A stretch of DNA of 59,884 nt, filler included, from an uncultured Candidatus Sumerlaeota bacterium (lineage in GTDB: Bacteria > CAYMEV01), in the NCBI GenBank assembly GCA_964389675.1. It is 12 parts of 12 records of this genome, joined end to end, with 100 filler letters (N's around TTAATTAATTAA, not from the genome) between each part and the next. Parts side by side here need not be neighbours in the genome. Positions count along the whole stretch, not along the records: positions 8,696 to 15,979 come from CAYMEV010000046.1; 11 more parts are not named here. One strand, 5' to 3'. This document shows positions 8,519 through 59,884 of the stretch, piece by piece. Every line of letters begins with the position of its first letter. The first letter of the stretch is position 1. The translations under genes and the position numbers were made by a program. The notes under the pieces are model-generated. The model was not told the origin of the DNA, searched no databases, and was given only the letters and a program-made list of their open reading frames with translations.

Positions 8519-8546
8519 AGGCAAAAGCACCGTGCTGCTTTTGCCC
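8519..8546 (-). terminator. 3' hairpin with GCACGG loop after an orphan GH-like gene end
   Basis: Minus strand GGGCAAAAGCA-GCACGG-TGCTTTTGCCT. Confidence 0.8.
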
Positions 8547-8553
8547 TGCGATA

Positions 8554-8595
8554 TTACTCTTCTACCAGGTTTACGACTACATAAAGGACATCCCC
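8554..8595 (-). CDS. C-terminal end of a GH-like family paralog (partial, contig edge)
   Basis: Reads GDVLYVVVNLVEE*, matching GGDTLYTVVNLVED* of 12300..14180; may be the end of the 57975..58612 copy or another copy. Confidence 0.75.
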   Translation of the reverse strand, partial: GDVLYVVVNLVEE

Positions 8596-8695
8596 NNNNN
8601 NNNNNNNNNNNNNNNNNNNNNNNNNNNNNNNNNNNNNNNTTAATTAATTAANNNNNNNNNNNNNNNNNNNNNNNNNNNNNNNNNNNNNNNNNNNN
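8596..8695. other. Artificial contig linker; same linker at 15980, 23145, 29051, 34251, 39387, 44000, 48403, 51861, 55216 and 57875
   Basis: 100-nt N run with central TTAATTAATTAA (stops in six frames). Confidence 0.98.
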
Positions 8696-8749: not shown

Positions 8750-9884
8750 TCAATATCCCCACCCCCTGCATGCCTTGCCCATAGAAAGCGGCCTGTATTG
8801 TCTATCTTTGCTATAAATATATCTCTTATGCCATACGAGACAAGGCTGATATCCTGAGACTCTCCGAAATAAATTGTTTTGCCGAAATCCCCTGTTATTA
8901 CGGCATTGCCTTCATTATCAACAGCTATACCCCTGCTGTAATTAGATTTAGTCCCATAGGAATAGGTAACTTTGCCCACAGGAAATTGCCCCCGGCGTCA
9001 AGCTTTGCCACAAAGTTATCGGTATAAATATCAGAGCATCGGCCAACCAGGGTTATGACCGGCAGGGAGAAGGGATCGCCGAAATAAGCTGTATTGACGA
9101 ATTCGCCTGTTATAAAGGTATTGCCTGATGCGTCTGTGTCAACGCCGTTAATCGAAAAACGCTCACGTTCATCTATATAAGACCCTGCCTGGTTTACCCA
9201 GAGGAAATTTCCGTCATTATCCATTTTTGCAATGAAGCCGGTCTTATGATAATTGCCTAAGGTTATCAGTTCAATAGTGCCGGGAGCCCCCGGCTCCCCG
9301 AAATAGCAATTCCCTCTGACATTCCCGGATATATAGATATTGCCCTGGGAGTCCACATGTATATCCTCGCCGTAGTCATGGTGCCATCCCCCGGCCTTTG
9401 CGGCCCACAGATAATTGCCGTCAGGGTCAATCTTTACAATGAATATATCCAGCCCGCCGCGGGAGATCAGCTCAAAGGGACCGAAGGAAATAATATCCCG
9501 GAAGTATCCAGTTACATAAGAATTGCCGTATCCATCAATATCAATGCCGTATCCATAATCAAAATCCAGACAGTCGGCCTGGTTAACCCAGAGGAAGTTC
9601 GCGTCATTATCAATCTTTGCAATAAAGGTATCAGGCCACTCAACGGCAGTCAGATCAATACAGTCAGGATTCCCGGGGATCCCGAAGGTCGCATCACCGC
9701 TAAAGTCTCCTGTTATAAAGGAATTGCCGTCACTGTCCACAGCAATATCATGAACAAGGATAGACCCGTGGCCGCCATCATCCCCGGCCTGGGTGGCCCA
9801 GAGGAATTTGGGGGCTTCCTGGGCAAAGAGTAGAAATGAACCTGAATATAATAATAAAATCACCATTGCGGTATTCTTTAACAT
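8750..9884 (-). pseudogene. Duplicated, truncated and frameshifted SBBP beta-propeller gene
   Basis: Same MLKNTA start and repeats as 9902..12081; cut at 8750. Confidence 0.85.
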
Positions 9885-9903
9885 AAAGCACCTCCATACA
9901 GCT
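8750..9903. repeat. Direct repeat of 10947..12100 (offset 2197 nt)
   Basis: Identical translations and identical frameshift in both copies. Confidence 0.92.
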
Positions 9904-12081
9904 AAAACACCCATTCCAGCCTGGTCTTATACTCATCGGTAACCATGCCCTCTGTGGATATGCATTCCAGGATATAGAAATAATTCCCCTTCTTTATTTT
10001 ATCCCTGAATGTATAAAGCTGAGGGCTTGATGAGTTGACCTGCCCGGGTATTATCCCTTCATTAAGCTTTACCGGGACAAAGGATGCAGAGGGGCTCACC
10101 TTGTCCCCCTTAAGCCTGTAAAGGTTGAATCCGAGATTGTTCACCTCGGATACGGTCATCCAGCGTATATCGGCACTGCCCCCGTATCCCCGGGCTGTAA
10201 AAAAGGCAAGCTCAACGGGAAGGGATAGCTCGCTATAAGCGATGTTATTGATCATATTTATGTCATTCGGCATTGTTTCAGAGACAAATACCGTAATTAC
10301 ATACATCCTCGGATCAAGCTCGGCGCTTGTTTCCCATTGAATGGAAACATCGGCATAATCCTCTGTCTGAAGGTTATAAAATGACACAGTACCTATCATA
10401 TTCAGGCCTGTATCGGGCTCAATGCTGTAATAGAATTCAACATTTCCCTGGGAGATATCCTCCATCCCGTAATTATACACCCTTGCATTTATTTCCACCG
10501 TATCCCCGGGCTCCGCCATACCCGGCTGAAAACTGATATCAGAAGGCAGGACCGATGCATCAGCTCCCCAGGCCCCTGAATCAAGACAGGCTACAAAAAG
10601 CGTGGTATCAAAGTGGGGAGGTACATAAAGCTGGGGAGTATCCGGGTCATCAGGTTCACCAAAATAGACAGTCCCGCCAAAAAGCCCTGCAATATAGGCA
10701 TTTCCTTCATTGTCCACCGCTATGTGATAGCTGGTGCAGACATATCCCCCCAGGCGCTTTGCCCAGTAGAAATTACCATTCGTGTCCAGCTTGGCAACAT
10801 ATGATCCATCAGGGAAAGGAGAATCAGGCATAGGATGAAGAACTGTTGTATTTAAATGGCCAGGATCTCCGAAATATGCAGTAAGTGTGTATTCACCCGT
10901 TATATAGACATTGTCCGAGCTATCAACTGAAATGCCAAATCCAAAATCAATATCCCCACCCCCTGCATGCCTTGCCCATAGAAAGCGGCCTGTATTGTCT
11001 ATCTTTGCTATAAATATATCTCTTATGCCATACGAGACAAGGCTGATATCCTGAGACTCTCCGAAATAAATTGTTTTGCCGAAATCCCCTGTTATTACGG
11101 CATTGCCTTCATTATCAACAGCTATACCCCTGCTGTAATTAGATTTAGTCCCATAGGAATAGGTAACTTTGCCCACAGGAAATTGCCCCCGGCGTCAAGC
11201 TTTGCCACAAAGTTATCGGTATAAATATCAGAGCATCGGCCAACCAGGGTTATGACCGGCAGGGAGAAGGGATCGCCGAAATAAGCTGTATTGACGAATT
11301 CGCCTGTTATAAAGGTATTGCCTGATGCGTCTGTGTCAACGCCGTTAATCGAAAAACGCTCACGTTCATCTATATAAGACCCTGCCTGGTTTACCCAGAG
11401 GAAATTTCCGTCATTATCCATTTTTGCAATGAAGCCGGTCTTATGATAATTGCCTAAGGTTATCAGTTCAATAGTGCCGGGAGCCCCCGGCTCCCCGAAA
11501 TAGCAATTCCCTCTGACATTCCCGGATATATAGATATTGCCCTGGGAGTCCACATGTATATCCTCGCCGTAGTCATGGTGCCATCCCCCGGCCTTTGCGG
11601 CCCACAGATAATTGCCGTCAGGGTCAATCTTTACAATGAATATATCCAGCCCGCCGCGGGAGATCAGCTCAAAGGGACCGAAGGAAATAATATCCCGGAA
11701 GTATCCAGTTACATAAGAATTGCCGTATCCATCAATATCAATGCCGTATCCATAATCAAAATCCAGACAGTCGGCCTGGTTAACCCAGAGGAAGTTCGCG
11801 TCATTATCAATCTTTGCAATAAAGGTATCAGGCCACTCAACGGCAGTCAGATCAATACAGTCAGGATTCCCGGGGATCCCGAAGGTCGCATCACCGCTAA
11901 AGTCTCCTGTTATAAAGGAATTGCCGTCACTGTCCACAGCAATATCATGAACAAGGATAGACCCGTGGCCGCCATCATCCCCGGCCTGGGTGGCCCAGAG
12001 GAATTTGGGGGCTTCCTGGGCAAAGAGTAGAAATGAACCTGAATATAATAATAAAATCACCATTGCGGTATTCTTTAACAT
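9902..12081 (-). pseudogene. Secreted SBBP-repeat beta-propeller + CARDB + LPVEL Ig-like protein (locus A), frameshifted at about 11153-11163
   Basis: Repeats IAVDxxGNxYITG...FIAKxDxxGNFLWA; ORFs 11122..12132 and 9902..11176 join when 5 nt are removed (WAKLSYG). Confidence 0.85.
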
Positions 12082-12099
12082 AAAGCACCTCCATACAGC

Positions 12100-12299
12100 T
12101 TTTAATTTATATAAAACATGAATGCAAGTCAATGCTCATCTGCATAAAAAGTAATACTTCTTCATTGCACAATAACAATATCATATTTAAAAATATTGAC
12201 CAAAAAAAAAAATATTTAAGCTCGGATATATATTGTTTGTGGCAGGGAAAGCCGTGCATTTTCCTGTTTTTTAATAAATAACTTTACAGGAGGTAACTT
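12100..12299. promoter_or_regulatory. Divergent promoter region of locus A, with A11 tract and CCGTGC-loop leader hairpin (12243-12266)
   Basis: TTGACT-N17-TAAATT on minus strand; TTGACC-A11 on plus strand; CAGGGAAA-GCCGTGCA-TTTTCCTG followed by T run; homologous to 46356-46567 and 58613-58839. Confidence 0.7.
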
Positions 12300-14180
12300 A
12301 TGTTATTTTTTACCAGAAGAATCTTTTTGGCAGTTTTTATCCTTGGTTTTGCATGCTTACCCATGTTTGGACAGTTTCTGCCTTCACAGGAGAGGCTGAG
12401 AATCAATGACTATTCCTTATTCCTTGATGACGAGAGGATAGTGCTCAGGGGAACATCGGAATATGCCTATATCAGTGATCCTGTCTACTACAATTGGCTT
12501 TACCCTTATAATTTCTGCATTCTGGTGGACGGGAATGGGGCTACGCAGTCTAATTTCCTGAGGATATGGATGGAAGGCTCTTCCAATACCAGCGGAGCAT
12601 GGAAATCAGGCGATGATCCCCATCCTTTATTCGGGACAAGCTCCTATCCTGATTATGCCATGCGGGAACAGCAGCCCTTTAAGTGCACCAATTACTTGAA
12701 TGTGCAAGATCCTGCTGATTATGTGTATGAACTGGATTCCTGGCCTGATTATAGCTTTGATTATGAAGGAATGGAAATTCCAAAGTATACGGACAGATTA
12801 AACTTTATTGTAACAGAGGCAAGGGACAATAATGTAATAGTAATGCTCACTCTGTTTGACGCATGCCTTAAAGACGGTGATTTGTTCAGATACTCAGCAT
12901 GGCATCCTCATAGAAATGGCAATGCAACGTTGGGATATCTGCCGGAAAGCGGGTCACCATACCCTGGATCAATTACTAGCGGGGAAGGTCAGTGCTTCTA
13001 TAATATCTGGGAATGGCAGCAGGATGTATTTGGAACATATATAGAATTCAATGATAAGCGTTTGAATTTATTGGGAGGGCTACAGAGAGAATATGTAAAG
13101 AGGGTGGTTCGGAGCATACCTTCTGACCGCTGGAATGTAATATTTGAGATAGAGAATGAGCCTAAAGCGGTAATAGCCCATACCGGCCATGGCGATGTCA
13201 ATCTCTCAGCAAGATGGAGCTACCAGGTGGCTAAATGGATAAAAGAAGAAAGGCCGAAGGCCCTGGTGGCATTTAATGCCCATGGAACTCCTTTTGTCAG
13301 GAGAGGACTGTTTCTCCTGGACCAGGGAGCAGACAGGATGATAGACATAGTATCCATACATGCTTCATATAATGCAGGCACCGGTGACAACTGGCAGCTT
13401 GATAAGCCTGAGGACTTTAACAATGATATTTTATGGCGGAATGCTGAGAAAATACATATACTGGATGCGCTTAACAGGACAAGGGAGGATGCTTGGTGCC
13501 AGGATTATGAAAATATGTCAAGGTTTTATATCATTGACAGCGACGGTGATTATGAAGAGGGGGGTGTGTATGATAATAATGCAGACAGGGTTAGAGAGAT
13601 TGCGGGCATAGCCTCGCTATTCGGGGCTGGTTATAATAACAAGTACTCCTCTGTAACTGATTATGATGAGGCTGTCTTTAATCAGGCACAGCTTCAACAG
13701 TTCAATGACAGGATAAATGAGAGGTTTTTTGACCCAAGCCAGAACTGGATGTATGGCATGTATAATACCACTCCCCCGTACAGGAGAAGCTATTTTGAAA
13801 ATAATGCCATCAGGTGCATGGAAATGTGGTATCCTATAATTAGGGACAAAGAAGAACCCTACAGCATTGATTTTAAGATAATAAACAACGGGACACTGGA
13901 TGACCTGGAAGCAGACGACTATTATCTGTATGATAGTACTACCGGAGCAACAGTTAAAATTACAAAGACACTGAATAAAGTGTATCCTGCCTGGAGCTGG
14001 ACCATTCCGATATCTAATCTGCCTCCTCCTCATAAAGAGGAAGTGACAATGGACTTTCCTGCATCTTCATGCAGTTGGGTTGTTCATGAACTGTATCTGC
14101 AAAAGAAAATATCTGAAAATGAATATGAGAGAGTAGGCGGAGATACCCTATATACAGTGGTAAATCTGGTAGAGGATTAA
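12300..14180 (+). CDS. Secreted clan GH-A (GH5-like) TIM-barrel protein with C-terminal Ig-like domain (locus A)
   Basis: Signal peptide, NFLRIWM, NVIVMLTLFD, WNVIFEIENEP acid/base motif; AGGAGG RBS. Confidence 0.75.
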   Translation: MLFFTRRIFLAVFILGFACLPMFGQFLPSQERLRINDYSLFLDDERIVLRGTSEYAYISDPVYYNWLYPYNFCILVDGNGATQSNFLRIWMEGSSNTSGAWKSGDDPHPLFGTSSYPDYAMREQQPFKCTNYLNVQDPADYVYELDSWPDYSFDYEGMEIPKYTDRLNFIVTEARDNNVIVMLTLFDACLKDGDLFRYSAWHPHRNGNATLGYLPESGSPYPGSITSGEGQCFYNIWEWQQDVFGTYIEFNDKRLNLLGGLQREYVKRVVRSIPSDRWNVIFEIENEPKAVIAHTGHGDVNLSARWSYQVAKWIKEERPKALVAFNAHGTPFVRRGLFLLDQGADRMIDIVSIHASYNAGTGDNWQLDKPEDFNNDILWRNAEKIHILDALNRTREDAWCQDYENMSRFYIIDSDGDYEEGGVYDNNADRVREIAGIASLFGAGYNNKYSSVTDYDEAVFNQAQLQQFNDRINERFFDPSQNWMYGMYNTTPPYRRSYFENNAIRCMEMWYPIIRDKEEPYSIDFKIINNGTLDDLEADDYYLYDSTTGATVKITKTLNKVYPAWSWTIPISNLPPPHKEEVTMDFPASSCSWVVHELYLQKKISENEYERVGGDTLYTVVNLVED

Positions 14181-14185
14181 GAAGC

Positions 14186-14227
14186 AGAGGCAATAGCAGC
14201 ACGGTGCTATTGCCTCTTCATTTTTTT
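14186..14227 (+). terminator. 3' hairpin/terminator with GCACGG loop
   Basis: AGAGGCAATAGCA-GCACGG-TGCTATTGCCTCT then T run. Confidence 0.85.
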
Positions 14228-14791
14228 ACCAAAAAAGAAATTTGCGCTACCTGTAAGTTGCTTTATCATAATACTTCCGGGTCATGCTGAATGTTGCCTT
14301 GCCTCTCTTAAGTGAAATTTCCATGCTACATCGGCAATATGGAAATTAAGTGCACAGGATGTTTAATAATAATGGTCTTTTAGATGATTTGATAGAGTTT
14401 TTTCGATATTTCGTTAAAAGTAAATGACAGGCTTTTATCGGGCTCTATAAAGATTGTTACGGCAAAAAGCAGGTTTTATAGAAAGGAAAAGGGAAATTTT
14501 TTAAATAATAATCTGAAAAAAGGCAGAACTGGTATATATTTTCAAATATATTATAGGAGGTCCCGTTAAATAATATACCTTTAATTATCTTTGCAAGAAC
14601 CACTCTAATACAATCACGATAAGAGCATTGTATTAGATATTATTTCATGAACAGAATTTCTGTTAAAAATATCTTATAAGCAGAAGTTATATTCCTATGT
14701 CCATCTTGTGATCTTGCTCCGCCCCATATGTAAACTGTCTAAAATATTCCATTATAGTTGTCGCTGAACAATCGTTCTTTCCTAAAATGGA

Positions 14792-15005
14792 TCACAGATT
14801 AGCAGTTTCAGGAAGAATCCCCCTGACCTTAATGAGAAATGATATTGATCTTTTAATGCGCTTGATTTTATGCCCTCTCTGCTTTAGCAGCTCAATTATA
14901 CTGTTCTTTCCGATAAAATGGCCAGTTCCAGCCATTATAAATACTGTGCTGTAATCATCATTATTTATATAATGCTCTATTCTATCTGCCATGTTTATAT
15001 TTCTT
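14792..15005 (-). pseudogene. C-terminal remnant of a TraB/GumN-family protein
   Basis: RNINMADRI...VFIMAGTGHFIGKNSIIELLKQRG; no N-terminal part. Confidence 0.6.
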
Positions 15006-15153
15006 TTTTCTTTTACTCTTTATTTATAAGATCAGAAAGGAGATGCCTATATTCCTGTCAACAGTTTACAATGTAAATCAATCTCTTCATTAATATAAAT
15101 ACCTATATTATAATAACATACTGTCTGGAATGAGATTTGCAATATAATCCTGC

Positions 15154-15979
15154 ATGGCAGGATTATACAAAAGGAGAACCCCGGAGAAAACAGCTCTATA
15201 CAAAATAGCATATAACTATTTCAACTACTATGAGAGCATATATCCTTTACGTTATGAGAAAGAATACGGACCTTTCAGGAAAATCATTGGAAAGACAGTC
15301 AACAAATATCTCGAATGCGGGATAATGGATAAAGGCTTTGCCAGGATACGCTGTCCACAATGCGGTAAGGATTACTTTATTGCCTTTTCCTGCAAGACCA
15401 GATTCTTTTGTCCCTCATGTTCCCAGAAGAGGACCCTCATCTGGGGAGATTGGGTCAAATCAAATGTACTGGAGAATGTAGCTCACCGTCAATGGGTATT
15501 TACAATTCCCAAAATCCTAAGGAAGCTTTTCTATAAGGACAGAAAGCTCCTGGGGCAACTTGCAAAATGTGCAAAAGATACAGTAGCAGAGATATTTAGC
15601 TCAATATATCCAGATTATAAACCAGGCATAGTACTCTCTATACAGACTTTCGGGGACCTTCTTTTATGGCATCCGCATATACACTGCCTTATAACAGACG
15701 GAGTCTTTGATAAGGAAAATAATTTTTACCCCATACCAAAAGTAGACACCAAAAAGGCAGTGATAGTATTCAGGGAAAAGGTATTTGACATGCTTAAGAG
15801 AAATGCACGTATCAGCACTATACTCATTAATAAGATGAGAGGTTGGCAATATACAGGCTTCTCAGTCCATAATGCAGTATTGATATCAGAAGATAATCCA
15901 GATGCCTTATCCAGGCTTGCAGAATACATAGTGCATGCTTCTTTTTCCTCAGAGAAGATAACCTTCTCAGAGAAATCCC
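15154..15979 (+). mobile_element. IS91-family-like transposase (Zn-binding + Y2/HUH domain), partial
   Basis: CGIMDKGFARIRCPQC, SCKTRFFCPSC, HRQWVFTIP, QTFG..WHPHIH (HUH); runs into linker. Confidence 0.9.
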
Positions 15980-16893: not shown

Positions 16894-17044
16894 ACACAAC
16901 GCTCCGCGAATATACGAAGTAAACCCGGCCCCGTGCGGGCTTGAATATATTCTGGGAAATTATATCATAATTTTTCAGAATATATTCAAAGGGTTTATTT
17001 GCCGAAGGCCAAGGCGAAGCCGCAGCAAATATTCGCTGTTAGAT
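16894..17044 (-). other. attC-like site
   Basis: R'' ATCTAAC overlapping stop, R' GTTGTGT, GCGAATAT/ATATTCGC arms, long internal hairpin. Confidence 0.8.
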
Positions 17045-23245: not shown

Positions 23246-23605
23246 AGTCTTGTTGAACCTATAATTGTAAATATAGGAGAACCATATACACTTGATATCA
23301 TGGTTATCAATAATGGCACATACAGTGATTTTTCAGATATCGGGAATAACCTGTATCTCTGGGATAAGGAAACTGGAGTGACTGCAGAAATTGAGCCTGA
23401 CCTTTTGAAGGTAACACCACCCACAGCCTGGACAATACCGCCTCTTACCCTGGGCACTTCCCATAAAACAGTAGTTACTATGTCCTTTGATGCAATCGAA
23501 GAGGAAACAAGCAGAGAACATGAGATCGTCATTGTCAAAATGGCTGCCGGCTTTAAGGTAGAGATTGGAGGAGATACATTGAGAGTCCAGGTTTTTGCAC
23601 AATAG
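23246..23605 (+). CDS. C-terminal Ig-like domain of a diverged GH-like family paralog (partial)
   Basis: Open from linker; PII..EPY..INNGT, WTIP, HK..VTM.F, HE, GGDTL align with C-termini of 12300..14180 and 44484..46355. Confidence 0.8.
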   Translation, partial: SLVEPIIVNIGEPYTLDIMVINNGTYSDFSDIGNNLYLWDKETGVTAEIEPDLLKVTPPTAWTIPPLTLGTSHKTVVTMSFDAIEEETSREHEIVIVKMAAGFKVEIGGDTLRVQVFAQ

Positions 23606-23613
23606 GCTGTAAG

Positions 23614-23641
23614 GAAAGAAAGATACACGGTAATTTCTTTC
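23614..23641 (+). other. 3' hairpin containing ACACGG
   Basis: GAAAGAAA-GATACACGGTAA-TTTCTTTC just after stop. Confidence 0.55.
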
Positions 23642-44448: not shown

Positions 44449-44476
44449 AGGCAATAACACCGTGCTGTTATTGCCT
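44449..44476 (-). terminator. 3' hairpin with GCACGG loop
   Basis: Minus strand AGGCAATAACA-GCACGG-TGTTATTGCCT. Confidence 0.85.
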
Positions 44477-44483
44477 ATTTTTT

Positions 44484-46355
44484 TTACTGGAAAATTACCG
44501 TAACATATAGGACATCTCCTCCTATTATTTCACGTAAGTAAGGTCCAGTCTGCTTTTCAATTACCAGTTCATGAGTTATGGAATCTTCAGACGAAGCCTC
44601 AAAATTCATCGTAACATAGTCCTTATGGGAATTATCCAGCTCAGATATCGGGATGGTCCAATCCCAAGGATTATACACCTTATTAAGTGTTTTTGTAATA
44701 TCAACTCTTTTCTTTGTATTAATATCATAAAGATTATATACCGTATTGGGGGGATCGTATTGCATATCATCATTGGTCCCATTGTTTATCACATTAAAAG
44801 TGAGGCTGTATTCAGAGTTTTTTGTTCTTATAATGGGGTGTGGTTCCTCGCACCTGATTGCATTATTATCAAAATAGTTTCTACTGTATGAGGGGTCCTG
44901 ATTAGCATATTTGCCGTATTTCCAGCCCTGGCTCTCATCAAAGAATCTCTCATTTATCTTATTATTAAACTGTACCATTAATAATGGATCAAACTGAGGA
45001 TCATCATAATCGTCTATGGAGCAATACTTATTATTATACCCGGCCCCAAATATTGAAGCAATCCCCGCGATCTGCTTTACTCTTGCAGCAGTATTGTCAT
45101 ATAGATTTCCAGAATCTCCGTCGCTGTCAATTATATAAAATCTTTGTAAATTCTGTAGATTTTGGAGTAAATTATCATCCCTTATCCTGTCCAGGGCATT
45201 TTTTATATGGATTTTCTGTGCATTTTCCCAATCTGAATAACTGGGGTAATCCTGAGGGTTATCAAGCTGCCAGTGGTCATTAGTACCTGCATTGCAGGAT
45301 GCATGAATAGATATAATATCTATCAATTTTACCAGGCCCTGATCCAGTGTAAGCAAGTCTCTCCTTATTGCAGGATCACCATGTGCATTAAAAGCAATAA
45401 GGGAGCTCGGCCTTTCTTTCTTTATCCATTTTGCTACCTGATGGCTCCATCTGGCTGACAGATTGATGTCTCCCTGACTGGTATCTGCAATAACAGGCTT
45501 AGGCTCATTTTCTATCTCAAATATGACATTCCAGTACTCAGCCGGGATACTGCCTGCTACCCTCTTTACATATCCCTCCTGCAATTCCCCCATATGATTA
45601 AGCGTATTAAAATAAATAGTATTTCCGTTCCATTCCCAGATATCATAGAAAGCGTAATTGGACTGCAAATTTATAGACAATGGATATGGAGACATACCTT
45701 CTAACAAAAACCCTGCAGTTCCAGGCTCACCCTGGACTGAATCATTATTATCAGGATTCCATGCAGAACATTTCCAACAAGCATCATTATCTTTAAGGCA
45801 TGAATCAAACAGTGTGATCATAACTATTACATTATTATCCCTTGCCTCTGATATGATATCAAGAAGCCTGTCTTCATATGCTGGTATATCATCATCATAC
45901 CAATCGGGCCAAAACCGAAGGTCATACTCATAATCTACAGGGTTTACGTCCTGTCCCAGGTAGTTTAGGCACTTAAATGGCTGCTGTTCTCTTTTGCCAT
46001 AATCAGGATAGGAAATGGTCCCGAATATTGGATGAGGATCATCCCCAGCCTTCCAGAGCCCGCTGGTATTGGAATAGCCTTCCATCCAGATCCTTAAAAA
46101 GTTGGACCTTGTATTACCGGAGCCAGCTATGAGTATTGTGAAATTATCAGGAAACAACTCACTATATATAAGTGGATCGCTTAAATAATGGTAATCTGAT
46201 GTTCCCCTGAGCACAATCCTCTCATCATCAAAGAACAGTGAGAAATCATTGATCCTCAGCCTTGGCAATACCGGGTTCCATTGAGTAAAAACAGAAAAGC
46301 ATGCAAAACCAAGAATAAAGAAAAATAATAAAAGCCTTTTGATTAAATTAAACAT
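44484..46355 (-). CDS. Secreted GH-A-like TIM-barrel/Ig protein (locus B)
   Basis: Collinear paralog of 12300..14180; WNVIFEIENEPK. Confidence 0.78.
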   Translation of the reverse strand: MFNLIKRLLLFFFILGFACFSVFTQWNPVLPRLRINDFSLFFDDERIVLRGTSDYHYLSDPLIYSELFPDNFTILIAGSGNTRSNFLRIWMEGYSNTSGLWKAGDDPHPIFGTISYPDYGKREQQPFKCLNYLGQDVNPVDYEYDLRFWPDWYDDDIPAYEDRLLDIISEARDNNVIVMITLFDSCLKDNDACWKCSAWNPDNNDSVQGEPGTAGFLLEGMSPYPLSINLQSNYAFYDIWEWNGNTIYFNTLNHMGELQEGYVKRVAGSIPAEYWNVIFEIENEPKPVIADTSQGDINLSARWSHQVAKWIKKERPSSLIAFNAHGDPAIRRDLLTLDQGLVKLIDIISIHASCNAGTNDHWQLDNPQDYPSYSDWENAQKIHIKNALDRIRDDNLLQNLQNLQRFYIIDSDGDSGNLYDNTAARVKQIAGIASIFGAGYNNKYCSIDDYDDPQFDPLLMVQFNNKINERFFDESQGWKYGKYANQDPSYSRNYFDNNAIRCEEPHPIIRTKNSEYSLTFNVINNGTNDDMQYDPPNTVYNLYDINTKKRVDITKTLNKVYNPWDWTIPISELDNSHKDYVTMNFEASSEDSITHELVIEKQTGPYLREIIGGDVLYVTVIFQ

Positions 46356-46567
46356 ATATTACCTCCTAAAAATATTATTAAAAAACAGGAAAATGCACGG
46401 ATATCCCTGTTAATAATATAATAATTACAATTCTAAGTAATTTTATTTTTATTTTTCAATATTTTTTAGTATGATAATATTATTATGAAAATATATTTCT
46501 TTATATGTAATTGGATATTGACTTATATTCATGTTAAATATATATTAGAGCTATATGGAGGTATCTT
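46356..46567. promoter_or_regulatory. Divergent promoter region of locus B, with CCGTGC-loop leader hairpin (46385-46410)
   Basis: Minus strand TTGAAA-N18-TAGAAT, then ACAGGGATAT-CCGTGC-ATTTTCCTGT and T run; TTGACT on plus strand. Confidence 0.7.
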
Positions 46568-48402
46568 ATGTCAAGAGATGCTTTAGCCATTATTATCCTG
46601 GTGTTTTTTTTGGGAACATTTTTATCTTATGCTCAGGAAGCCCCTTTGTTTCTCTGGGCAAACCAGGCAGGATCTGAATGGGGATTATATTTTATTGAGG
46701 TTTTTGATATTGCTGTTGATAATTACGGCAATTCATACATAACAGGATATTTTGCTGGCGATGCAACCTTTGGCATACCGGGAAATCCTGACAATACTGA
46801 CCTTTTTTCATGGGGATACGGCGATGTGTATTTTGCCAAGGTTGATCCTGAGGGAGATTTTTTGTGGGTGATCCAGGCAGGCGGTATAGACTCGGAGAGG
46901 GGCATGGGGATTACTAGCGATGATAATGGTAACATGTATATAATTGGCCAATTTTCTGAATATATCTGTTTTGGCGACCCGGATGACCCTTCTACAATAA
47001 GGCTCGATACAGATGAATATATATGTGCATTTATAGCAAAATACGATGCATATGAAGCTATACAATGGGCAATAAAGATAGAAGGCAATGCTCTTGTAAC
47101 GGGAGATGATTTGGCTGTTGACAGCTCCGGTAATATAATTATATCTGGACATTTCAGCAGCACAGCATATTTTGGGGAGCCAGGAGATCCTGAGACAATA
47201 GAATTGACCGCATTGGGAAACTGGCAAATAACAGGCTTCATTGCAAAAATGGATAGCTCAGGCAGCTTTCTCTGGGCGAATCAGACAGGGACCCTTATAT
47301 ATGAGAATGATAATTTTTCCCTTAATGCAATTGATACTGATCCCTTTGGCAATACATTCATTACCGGATATTATCGTAGTGCAGCATATTTCGGAGACCC
47401 ATATACCATACCGCTTATTACACTGGATATCTATTCCAGCAATGATAATTTTAATGATATATTTATAGCAAAGCTTGATGATGAAGGAGAGTTCCTCTGG
47501 GCAAGGCGGGCATATGGCAGTGGTGCTGACTTCAGCCTTGATGTGGCTGCTGATAATGAAGGCAATGCAGTCATAACAGGATATTTTAAAAAGACCATAT
47601 ACTTTGGGGAGTCTGAGGATATAAGCCTTTCCACGAATAATCACTGCAATATATTTATAGCAAAAATTGATCTTTCAGGTAATTTCCTTTGGGCGAAGCA
47701 GGCAGGGGGCGTCCATATTGATATTGCAGAGAGTGTTGCAGTTGACAGTTCAAACAATGCATATATTACAGGATCATACTGTGAGATAGCATATTTTGGA
47801 GAGCCGGGTCATTTAAATACAATAATTCTAATGCCTTATAATAATTGCGGTTCATTTGTAGCCAAACTTGACCCTGATGGTAATTTCTTCTGGGCAAAGC
47901 GCCTGGGGGGATTCAGCTGCTCAAGCAGATGCATTGCAGTAGATGATGAAGACAATTCATATATTGCGGGGCTTTTTAAGGGGACTATCTATTTCGGTGA
48001 GCCTGATGACCCTGGTACGCCACAGCTGTATGTATCACCTAATGAGTATAATATAGTTTTTGTCGCCCGTCTTGATTCGGGCACCTATGGCCCTGATGCT
48101 TCCGTAGTATCCTCAGATTTGAGCTTTCAGCCGGGCCTGCCGGATCCAGGAGATACTGTGGAAATAAATGCAAAAATTTATAATTATGGAATGGAAACGA
48201 TCAATCAGGGAAATGTTGAATTCTATTATAGTATTGAACCAGATACTGGCCTCAATATGATAGGGACAGTCCCCTTTCATGATCTTCAGACAGAAAATTA
48301 TACCGATGTTTCCATTCAATGGGAAACAGGCACTGAACTTGACCCGCGAATGTATGTAATAACAGTATATATTTCTGATACGATGCCGAATGATATAAAT
48401 AT
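46568..48402 (+). CDS. Secreted SBBP beta-propeller + CARDB protein (locus B), partial
   Basis: Paralog of 9902..12081 without frameshift; runs into linker. Confidence 0.88.
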
Positions 48403-57974: not shown

Positions 57975-58612
57975 CGGAAGATATGCGTCCGTTACATAAT
58001 TATTTCTCTGAGGGTTCCATGCTGAGTATGGCCAATACCTGCCATCATTTTTAAGACATGCATCAAACAGAGTAATCATCACTATAACATTATTATCCCT
58101 TGCTTCTCTCAGGATATCCTGCATTCGGTCTGGATACTGTTTAATACCCTCAAAGTCATAATCAGGCCAGGAATCCAGCTCATAAGTATAATTAACAGGG
58201 TCTGTCTCCATATAATTAGTGCACTTAAAGGGCTGCTGCTCTCTCATGGCATATAAAGAATAAGAGTTTAGTTTGTCCCGAATACTGGATGGGGGTCATC
58301 ACCTGCTTTCCATGTCCCGGCTGTATTGGAAAAGCCTTCCATCCATATCCTAAGGAAATTTGACTTTGTATCCCCTGTACCGTTCACAAGAACACCGAAA
58401 TTATTTGGAAAAAGCTCATTGTAAATGAGGGGGTCGCTGATATAATGATACTCAGATGTCCCCCTCAAGACTATCCTCTCATCATCAAGAAATAATGAGA
58501 AGTCATTGACCCTCAGCCTCTCCTGTGATGGGAGAAACTGCCCAAACAAAGACAGACATGAAAAAACAAGAATAAAAGCCGATAATAGAAGCCTTTTAAT
58601 TAAATTGAACAC
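57975..58612 (-). pseudogene. GH-A-like gene (locus C), partial, frameshifted by a 5-bp tandem duplication
   Basis: AAACT-AAACT at 58265-58274; removing one copy gives FGTNSYSLYAMREQQPF. Confidence 0.85.
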
Positions 58613-58839
58613 AATATTACCTCCTAAAAATATTATTAAAAAACAGGAAAATGCACGGATATCCCTGTTAATAATATAATAATTACAATTCTAAGTAATT
58701 TATTTTTTTTTTTCAATATTTTTAAATATGATATTATTATTAGGAATGAAGAAGCATTACTTTTTAGGCAGATGGACATTGACTGATATGCATATTTGAT
58801 ATATTATAAATTAAAGGTATATGGAGATGGAGGTGCTTT
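58613..58839. promoter_or_regulatory. Divergent promoter region of locus C, with A11 tract and CCGTGC-loop hairpin (58643-58668)
   Basis: Minus strand TTGAAA-N17-TAGAAT; plus strand TTGACT-N17-TATTAT. Confidence 0.72.
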
Positions 58840-59884
58840 ATGTTAAAGAACACCGCAATAATAATTATATTATTCTTTTCAAGCTCTTTTTTTGTCTTTG
58901 CCCAGGAGGCCCCCAAATTCCTGTGGGCAACCCAGGCAGGAGATGAGACCGGAGGCGGTTCTATACATGTTCATGACATTGCTGTTGATAATGACGGAAA
59001 TTCCTATATAACAGGATTTTTTATTGGTGATGCGACATTCGGGATCCCCGGGAATCCTGACTGTATTGATCTAAGTGCTGTTGAGTGGGCTGATACATTT
59101 ATTGCAAAGATCGATAATGATGGGAACTTCCTCTGGGTTAACCAGGCCGATTGTCCGCTCTCTGACCAGGCATGCAGCATTGATATTGATGAATACGGTA
59201 ATTCTTATATAACCGGATACTTCCGGGATATACTTTCCTTCGGTTCCTTTGAACTGATCTCCCGTGGCGGGGTGGACACATTCATTGCAAAGATTGACCC
59301 TGAGGGCAATTATATCTGGGCAAAGCAGGCCGGCGGAGAACGCCACGACTACGGAGAGGACATACATGTGGACTCCCAGGGCAATATCTATTTATCCGGG
59401 AATTTCGGGGGAACATGCTATTTCGGAGAGCCTGGAGATCCCGGGACTATTGAGCTTACAGCCTTAGGTAATCATCATATTACTGGCTTCATTGCAAAAA
59501 TGGATAATACAGGAAACTTTCTCTGGGCCAACCAGGCAGGGTCTTATATAGATGATCATGGCCTTTTTTCAATTAACGGCATTGATACAGACCCATCAGG
59601 CAATACATTCATAACGGGGGAATTTCCCAATACTGCTTATTTCGGCGATCCCCTATCCCTTCCGGTCATTACCCTGGAGGCCTATAATCACACCGATCTC
59701 TTTGTGGCAAAGCTTGATACCGGGGGAAATTTCCTGTGGGCAAATGGGGTTCATGGGAATGGGATTAGCTGCGGTACAGCTATAGCAGCTGATAAAGAAG
59801 GCAATGCTGTAATAGCGGGATATTTCGGTAAAACCATTTATTTCGGAGAGTCTCAGGATATCAGCCTTGTCCCGTATGGCATAA
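58840..59884 (+). CDS. Secreted SBBP beta-propeller protein (locus C), runs off window; absent from the ORF track
   Basis: GGAGG RBS, MLKNTAIII...AQEAPKFLWATQAG; frame open to window end by manual translation. Confidence 0.9.
   Translation, partial: MLKNTAIIIILFFSSSFFVFAQEAPKFLWATQAGDETGGGSIHVHDIAVDNDGNSYITGFFIGDATFGIPGNPDCIDLSAVEWADTFIAKIDNDGNFLWVNQADCPLSDQACSIDIDEYGNSYITGYFRDILSFGSFELISRGGVDTFIAKIDPEGNYIWAKQAGGERHDYGEDIHVDSQGNIYLSGNFGGTCYFGEPGDPGTIELTALGNHHITGFIAKMDNTGNFLWANQAGSYIDDHGLFSINGIDTDPSGNTFITGEFPNTAYFGDPLSLPVITLEAYNHTDLFVAKLDTGGNFLWANGVHGNGISCGTAIAADKEGNAVIAGYFGKTIYFGESQDISLVPYGI

Follow-up and report, generated by a model that had tools for sequence, protein, structure and literature searches.

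Complementary loops in the leader and 3' hairpins of an orphan, probably glycoside hydrolase-like gene family from an uncultured Candidatus Sumerlaeota bacterium: candidate elements for a 5'-3' kissing contact

In 59,884 nucleotides (nt) of DNA from an uncultured Candidatus Sumerlaeota bacterium (assembly GCA_964389675.1), referred to as the window, the genes of an orphan, probably glycoside hydrolase (GH)-like family carry one hairpin in the leader and a second one shortly after the stop codon. The two loops, CCGUGC in the leader and GCACGG at the 3' end, are complementary over six Watson-Crick pairs. A tentative reading, to which a probability of about 45 % is given, is that both hairpins are family-specific cis-acting mRNA elements whose loops may pair, either in cis or between paralogs. 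Both hairpins are present in all three genes for which both ends are known, namely genes 1 and 2 of the window and gene 3 of a related metagenome-assembled genome (MAG). The family copies and their hairpins are the following:

12288-12293, plus strand: Shine-Dalgarno (SD) sequence AGGAGG of gene 1
12300-14180, plus strand: coding sequence of gene 1, 626 amino acids (AA), an orphan GH-A-like putative lipoprotein
12243-12266, plus strand: leader hairpin of gene 1, CAGGGAAA-GCCGTGCA-TTTTCCTG, followed by T6 (12267-12272)
14186-14217, plus strand: 3' hairpin of gene 1, stem of 13 base pairs (bp), loop GCACGG at 14199-14204, U-tract downstream of the stem
44484-46355, minus strand: coding sequence of gene 2, 623 AA, protein 59 % identical to that of gene 1
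46386-46409, minus strand: leader hairpin of gene 2, CAGGGATA-TCCGTGCA-TTTTCCTG, one U-U mismatch in the stem, followed by T6 (46380-46385)
44449-44476, minus strand: 3' hairpin of gene 2, stem GGCAATAACA/TGTTATTGCC, loop GCACGG
57975..58612, minus strand: 5' part of a frameshifted copy, GTG start, frame lost after residue 114, truncated at the contig edge
58644-58667, minus strand: leader hairpin of the frameshifted copy, CAGGGATA-TCCGTGCA-TTTTCCTG, followed by T6 (hairpin and U-run 58638..58667), same sequence as the leader of gene 2
8547-8595: last codons of a contig-edge copy, at the edge of the first contig
8519-8546, minus strand: 3' hairpin of the contig-edge copy, stem GGCAAAAGCA/TGCTTTTGCC, loop GCACGG
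23258..23605, plus strand: 3'-terminal part of a divergent paralog, truncated at the contig edge
23614-23641, plus strand: 3' hairpin of the divergent paralog, different A/U-rich stem, apex UAC-ACG-GUA, CACGG at 23626-23630
Gene 3 (loci L001/L002): leader hairpin CAGGAAAA-GCCGTGCA-TTTTCCTG
Gene 3: 3' hairpin GCAAAAGCA-GCACGG-TGCTTTTGC

The window has a G+C content of 38 % and consists of 12 contigs (~2-8 kb each) joined by N44-TTAATTAATTAA-N44 linkers, which lie at 8596-8695 and at 10 further sites; adjacency across these joints is meaningless. Several open reading frames (ORFs) of the six-frame list traverse the N stretches of the linkers. The related MAG G001 (3.3 Mb), reached via locus L001, served as a stand-in genome and has a 528-bp stretch in common with the window at 100 % identity. 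Homologs of the family were found at one locus in the genome collection (L001) and at two in the metagenome collection. L001 and L002, from the genome and the metagenome collection, respectively, overlap by 1157 bp at 100 % identity and together yield the third complete gene, gene 3. A search of 60 relatives of G001 returned G001 itself and one genome with weak hits of unrelated length. The metagenome evidence comprises the assembled contigs of four runs. The single run with an RNA-Seq label is probably DNA.

In gene 1, the leader stem is formed by 12243-12250 with 12259-12266, and the loop (12251-12258) contains CCGTGC at 12252-12257. The fold is present in all three distinct leaders and is weak, with energies of -6.4 to -8.3 kcal/mol (gene 1: -7.8), and the loop is 0.63-0.98 unpaired in the ensemble (gene 1: 0.63). 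Its sole variable position (G/U) falls outside the complementary hexamer, and the stems vary between copies by G-U versus A-U pairs. A preliminary description of this DNA had listed three leaders with CCGUGC. All three were found at the places it gave, but the third is identical to the second and lies on the frameshifted copy. It thus belongs to the minus-strand copy that runs from 58612 down to 57975 and not to the plus-strand gene at 58840. Since the leader of the frameshifted copy is identical to that of gene 2, the window contains two independent leaders instead of three. The frameshift of this copy, at 58268-58271, marks either a pseudogene or an assembly error.

Promoter-like sites were located upstream of the leader hairpins of all three genes:

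12196..12222, plus strand: promoter-like site of gene 1, TTGACC, A-rich spacer, TAAGCT, placed by alignment with genes 2 and 3
46430..46459, minus strand: promoter-like site of gene 2, TTGAAA-18-TAGAAT, 10/12 matches
Gene 3: promoter-like site TAGACA-18-TAAACT, 9/12 matches

These sites end 20 nt before the leader hairpin, a distance that is the same in all three genes. Because a conserved promoter-like site sits 20 nt upstream, we infer that the leader hairpin is part of the transcript, at about +13 of the predicted start. The preliminary description had named a transcript without the leader hairpin as an observation that would speak against a loop contact; the position of the sites instead predicts a transcript that includes the hairpin. 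The spacer of gene 1 has 15 nt in the window and is 2-3 A longer at 12201 in the contigs of all four runs. The A-run at this position has three more A in three runs and two more in one, which would change the putative -35/-10 spacing from 15 to 17-18 nt.

By its look, the leader hairpin would be a weak attenuator or a 5' stabiliser, because a U-run comes after it. It was flagged as terminator-like for genes 1 and 3 and not for gene 2, with its U-U stem mismatch, i.e. in two of the three distinct leaders. No conserved antiterminator fold was found among the leader foldings that were searched for one. A switch between SD and anti-SD pairing was considered and rejected, as pairing between the SD sequence and the 3' arm of the leader hairpin is confined to the 67-nt context of gene 1 and is absent in the other genes and in longer context.

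The 3' hairpin lies 5-20 nt past the stop codon and has a stem of 9-13 bp. In the close paralogs, it is stable, with energies of -15 to -23 kcal/mol and z-scores of -4.1 to -5.2, and none of 200 shuffled sequences folds as well. The three hairpins reported earlier to expose GCACGG were confirmed at 14186-14217, 44449-44476 and 8519-8546, each with a 6-nt loop in the sense of the gene. The compensatory stem changes described with them also held: in eight aligned hairpins, 6 of 13 pairs are altered on both sides, a number matched by none of 500 shuffles, and slid controls gave 0-3. G001 has five 3' hairpins (C47, which is that of the window, C30, C112, C222 and C6), each located after the C-terminal codons of a family member or relic. 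In a decayed copy with two stop codons, the loop is lost. The divergent-type 3' ends, L003 and 23614-23641, have an unrelated stem with CACGG retained at the apex, and one stem pair changes from G-C to A-U between them.

A U-tract, i.e. at least 5 U in 8 nt beginning 0-2 nt past the stem, follows only two of the nine 3' hairpins (14186 and 44449), and the other seven have 2-4 U. Therefore, canonical intrinsic termination is not the conserved role of this element. Since most 3' copies are not canonical terminators, it is more likely that the 3' hairpin marks or protects the 3' end. The same count bears on the explanation that the 3' hairpin is a plain terminator, combined with a constitutive 5' structure, and that the copies were kept alike by recent gene conversion and not by selection on the loops. 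Conversion has left traces at both ends. A 120-nt promoter-leader block is identical at 115 of 120 positions between gene 2 and the frameshifted copy, with flanks that are about 65-70 % identical, which points to a gene-conversion patch. At the other end, T1 (gene 1)/C47, C30, C112 and C6 have one common 3' hairpin sequence, and at 14214-14218 the contigs of all four runs split and continue into the sequences that flank these other 3' copies, which fits gene conversion ending where the homology ends. However, in addition to the scarcity of U-tracts, the lineages T1, T2 and T3/C222 differ in their stems and in their spacers between stop codon and hairpin while having the same loop, and CACGG on the unrelated stem of the divergent type is inexplicable by conversion. 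This explanation is therefore regarded as distinctly unlikely.

The conservation of both elements was assessed in three-way alignments of the complete genes 1, 2 and 3. The leader, with its loop, 3' arm and U-run, is the top-ranked 24-nt stretch of the first 769 columns, with 22 of 24 positions identical in all three genes compared to 52 % overall. The 3' hairpin is the second-ranked 24-nt stretch of the last 708 columns (20 of 24 compared to 45.5 % overall). Strong purifying selection on both hairpins is supported.

Both elements also appear to be exclusive to the family. The covariance model of the 3' hairpin returned only the five known copies in G001, and in the window the three known copies and the divergent one, the latter at 20.4 bits (E 0.014). 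The leader model returned only the one known copy in G001 and three in the window. A weak match of the leader model on C140 of G001 was discarded as mere T-rich sequence. A 13-nt match of the C6 relic to the leader U-run was rejected as well, since it falls in homologous C-terminal coding sequence. The Rfam search called for earlier was run over the whole window and gave no match at the gathering score. Matches below this threshold on 12150-14300 were generic stem-loops at chance level, with the plastid psbA 3' untranslated region (UTR) reaching 25-27 bits against a gathering score of 56-57. The preliminary description had also considered that the same loops might be common in unrelated terminators; as both models match only copies of this family in the window and in G001, and given the Rfam result, the loops are not a common terminator feature.

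The complementarity of the loops is the observation on which the proposed contact is based. Each hexamer is present once per mRNA, and of the nine occurrences on both strands of the window, six are loops of these hairpins. A small G+C-rich hairpin at 16925-16940 on the minus strand, between two minus-strand ORFs, has GCACGG partly in its stem; it receives no covariance-model score and is probably unrelated. The duplex of the two 6-mers has an energy of -9.3 kcal/mol. When the simple hairpins of the window are paired on the same strand, 51 of the 22,257 resulting pairs have loops with a 6-nt Watson-Crick complement, five of them from this family, which corresponds to a chance rate of ~0.2 % per pair. 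The chance pairs are mostly A/T-rich. We would expect a chance match to be rarer still for a hexamer with five G/C in a genome of 38 % G+C. The two hairpins do not form a simple inverted repeat: on the antisense strand of the leaders, the 3' model reaches only 12.2-12.5 bits (E about 1.2), which bears out the earlier statement that the 5' and 3' stems are unrelated.

Nevertheless, several observations weigh against a loop contact. The z-scores of the leader fold are weak (-1.2 to -2.3 in context), its loop can close partly (GC-CGU-GC), and in-silico blocking of this loop leaves the predicted accessibility of the SD sequence unchanged. In the close paralogs, the stems are more conserved in sequence than the structure needs, as in GGCAAWARCA of the 3' stem, which is a hint of a sequence-specific protein. 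Several 3' copies are recent conversion products, so that about five independent lineages remain for the 3' hairpin and three for the leader. The loop of the divergent type begins with A (ACACGG), and according to the predicted fold its apex closes down to three unpaired nt (UAC-ACG-GUA), by which the hexamer would be partly buried. The copies with both ends known all have identical loops, hence there is no covariation between the loops, and a changed 3' loop (ACACGG) occurs in just one paralog type, of which the sequences analysed contain only 3' fragments. Moreover, the invariance of the loops across at least four paralogs suits a shared protein or a third RNA as partner equally well.

These points lead to the explanation that the two hairpins are independent elements, a quite conceivable one in our view. 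The leader would then be an attenuator, a 5' stabiliser or a protein site and the 3' hairpin an end stabiliser or a protein site, each loop would be read by a protein or an RNA, and the complementarity would be coincidental. Loops that are invariant across paralogs otherwise prone to cross-talk are what a shared trans factor would produce, and the retention of GGCAAWARCA beyond structural need, the ability of both loops to close partly into triloops and the terminator shape of two of the three distinct leaders are all in line with separate functions. In addition, many features were scanned at first, so that a coincidence of 0.2 % was bound to appear somewhere. However, this coincidence would have to strike a GC-rich hexamer in a 38 % GC genome and precisely the two elements at which conservation of the locus peaks. 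No 4-mer is common to the loops of the leader and the 3' hairpin, and therefore one protein reading one motif does not explain both of them. Furthermore, no gene for an RNA-binding regulator is conserved beside the loci, where the conserved neighbour encodes an SBBP beta-propeller protein. A reading of the loops as CsrA sites was rejected because the 3' loop contains GGU and not the GGA of the consensus.

Another explanation places the function at the DNA level, where the hairpins, as single-stranded DNA or as cruciforms, would be recognised by a recombinase, HUH enzyme or invertase, and the gene cassette between them would be moved or inverted. The hexamer is indeed inverted at both ends of the gene and lies at the centre of a palindrome each time, and the expanded family includes truncated copies as well as conversion tracts with their end point at the 3' hairpin. 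In addition, a gene for an IS91-family Y2 (HUH-type) transposase is located downstream of gene 1:

14539-15979: IS91-family element, cut by the contig end
15154-15978: transposase gene of this element, with Zn_Tnp_IS91 and Y2_Tnp domains

The left boundary of the element, at ~14537-14539, is evident from the divergence from C47 of G001 and from loose ends in the four metagenome runs. Identity between G001 and the window extends as far as 14538, where the two sequences diverge, and the other runs break at the same point. Therefore, the IS91 element is a strain-specific insertion that begins about 320 nt past the hairpin and is unrelated to the hairpins. No recombinase gene lies beside gene 2 or gene 3, and the common repeat is just 6 bp long. 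The variation between G-U and A-U in the leader stem is tolerable in RNA but makes a palindrome in duplex DNA asymmetric, and homology that ends at a hairpin is expected from conversion between old paralogs with unrelated flanks. The contigs of all four runs contain no strand-changing joint, which is a weak argument as contigs drop rare forms. Unlike the sites of IS91/IS200-type HUH enzymes and integron attC sites, the hairpins are linked to a transposase near gene 1 only, and this transposase is absent from the same locus in G001. The recombinase or HUH-site alternative raised in the preliminary description is thus not supported, and we consider it highly improbable.

If the loops of the leader and 3' hairpins pair, CCGUGC and GCACGG would join in a 6-bp kissing contact, either within one mRNA or between the transcripts of paralogs. 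Since all paralogs have the same loops, a contact in trans would be as possible as closure in cis. Fully paired 6-nt loops, as in TAR-TAR*, stack coaxially with their stems. In the same way, the contact might align both stems as one quasi-continuous helix of ~25-28 bp, which would either protect the ends of the mRNA or be cut by a double-strand ribonuclease (RNase). Either outcome, protection or cutting, would couple the expression of the family members. An extension of this idea is that the stable 3' hairpins of all paralogs, including those of truncated relics, kiss every leader in trans in the manner of a small RNA (sRNA), and thereby sense and cap the dose of family transcripts through attenuation or double-strand RNase cleavage. 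We consider this extension unlikely.

To our knowledge, examples of end-to-end communication within bacterial mRNAs are limited to very few genes (such as icaR and hbs), always as a linear duplex and for single genes. The papers listed by full-text literature searches dealt with icaR, hbs, an mRNA-mRNA interaction in Listeria and, as a preprint, the long-range folding of mRNA; none of those listed described a family of bacterial mRNAs whose 5' and 3' hairpin loops are complementary, and nothing relevant was among the papers listed for the two hexamers. For icaR of Staphylococcus aureus, the 3'-UTR of the mRNA is reported to pair with its own 5'-UTR, where a UCCCCUG motif in the more than 100-nt long 3'-UTR acts as an anti-SD on the SD region, and the duplex is an RNase III substrate, by which expression is lowered (PMC3868564). 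Pairing between the two UTRs of one mRNA is also what is proposed here, and because a helix of ~25-28 bp would be long enough for a double-strand RNase, the logic would be the same as for the RNase III substrate. In contrast to icaR, the sequence complementary to the 3' loop is not at the SD sequence AGGAGG but some 35 nt upstream of it, in a leader hairpin loop. A single hairpin that closely follows the stop codon makes up the 3' element, the contact is proposed to be loop to loop, and the pair is conserved across a paralog family. For hbs of Bacillus subtilis, likewise a single gene, a linear duplex of 14 bp between 5'- and 3'-UTR is reported, with an RNase Y site in the region of overlap (PMC5737220). 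The long-range pairing of mRNA ends, which in hbs modulates the access of the ribonuclease to the leader, is the common feature, whereas the pairing proposed here has 6 bp between two hairpin loops instead of a 14-bp linear duplex.

Loop-loop contacts themselves are well known from other settings. In CopA-CopT of R1 and RNA I-RNA II of ColE1, recognition begins at GC-rich complementary hairpin loops of 6-7 nt, to which the exposed loops CCGUGC and GCACGG are alike. Partners of the CopA-CopT type originate from the two strands of a single locus, and because their complementarity covers the full length, the kiss spreads to a long duplex. The stems described here, in contrast, are unrelated, and both hairpins are on the same strand, 1.9 kb apart. 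In the 3' cap-independent translation elements of plant RNA viruses, a kiss of 5-6 nt with a 5' hairpin closes a kilobase RNA. The contact proposed here would likewise connect a 3' element to the loop of a 5' hairpin, but those elements belong to eukaryotic viral RNAs, where the contact delivers translation factors, and we know of no bacterial counterpart, nor was one among the papers listed by the literature searches. Intrinsic terminators are resembled by the stem-loop with U residues in the leaders of genes 1 and 3 and in the 3' hairpins of genes 1 and 2; the other seven of the nine 3' hairpins are unlike them in having no U-tract, and terminator loops are not normally conserved in sequence across paralogs that are 42-60 % identical. 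The known kind to which these elements may belong is thus communication between 5'- and 3'-UTR, and what would be new is the loop-loop pair across a paralog family, with the contact itself being proposed and unproven.

The family to which the hairpins belong is extremely rare: a database of 5.8 billion proteins contains only 5 clusters of it. Its uncultured lineage occurs in sludge, digester and sediment metagenomes. The complete paralogs have 56-60 % protein identity and 67 % DNA identity from promoter to 3' hairpin, and the divergent paralog type is 42-45 % identical. Full-length members of this type are P0004 (602 AA) and P0005 (603 AA, encoded on a 30-kb contig). The divergent paralog at 23258..23605 shares 67 % identity with P0004/P0005 and about 41-44 % with genes 1 and 2. 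The N-terminus of the family proteins is hydrophobic and signal-like, and the invariant Cys19 at its end indicates that the family members may be lipoproteins. The earlier label 'GH-like' was retained in part. It gains from an invariant E-N-E-P motif, as the Asn-Glu-Pro of clan GH-A marks the acid/base residue, and from Foldseek, whose top matches are TIM barrels of GH5, GH26, GH66 and GH107. However, the best match has an E-value of 5e-9 with template modelling (TM) scores of only 0.2-0.46 among these matches, the AlphaFold model is of low confidence with a predicted local distance difference test (pLDDT) value of 52, and neither Pfam nor a sequence search of the PDB gave a match for the family proteins. 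The family is therefore probably GH-like and a glycoside hydrolase candidate, a reasonable label that is not established.

An SBBP beta-propeller-repeat gene is divergently paired with the family gene at all four loci whose upstream side is visible. Because this pairing applies to every family gene with a visible upstream side, it suggests that the two genes form a functional module. The SBBP genes, some of which have a CARDB domain, are located as follows:

8925-12132 in the window
46568-48402 in the window
58840-59883 in the window
2904-5126 in L001

Upstream of gene 1, the SBBP genes are tandemly duplicated, and repeated hairpins occur there 2197 nt apart. In all four metagenome runs, contigs fuse position 12155 directly to 13717 and skip 1561 nt. 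This joint therefore represents a copy with the start of the SBBP gene, followed by the last ~460 nt of the family gene and the hairpin. The depth is raised over 11921-12134 and 13717-14214, which are therefore multi-copy segments.

If the loops of the leader and 3' hairpins do pair, a contact common to a paralog family would be a new geometry for communication between mRNA ends and would add a new logic, namely cross-talk between the transcripts of paralogs. Reading in trans across the whole family, if true, would amount to a bacterial mRNA-mRNA kissing-loop regulon without a dedicated sRNA gene. Even without a loop contact, two new and sharply conserved cis-elements are found on an orphan enzyme-like family of an uncultured lineage.

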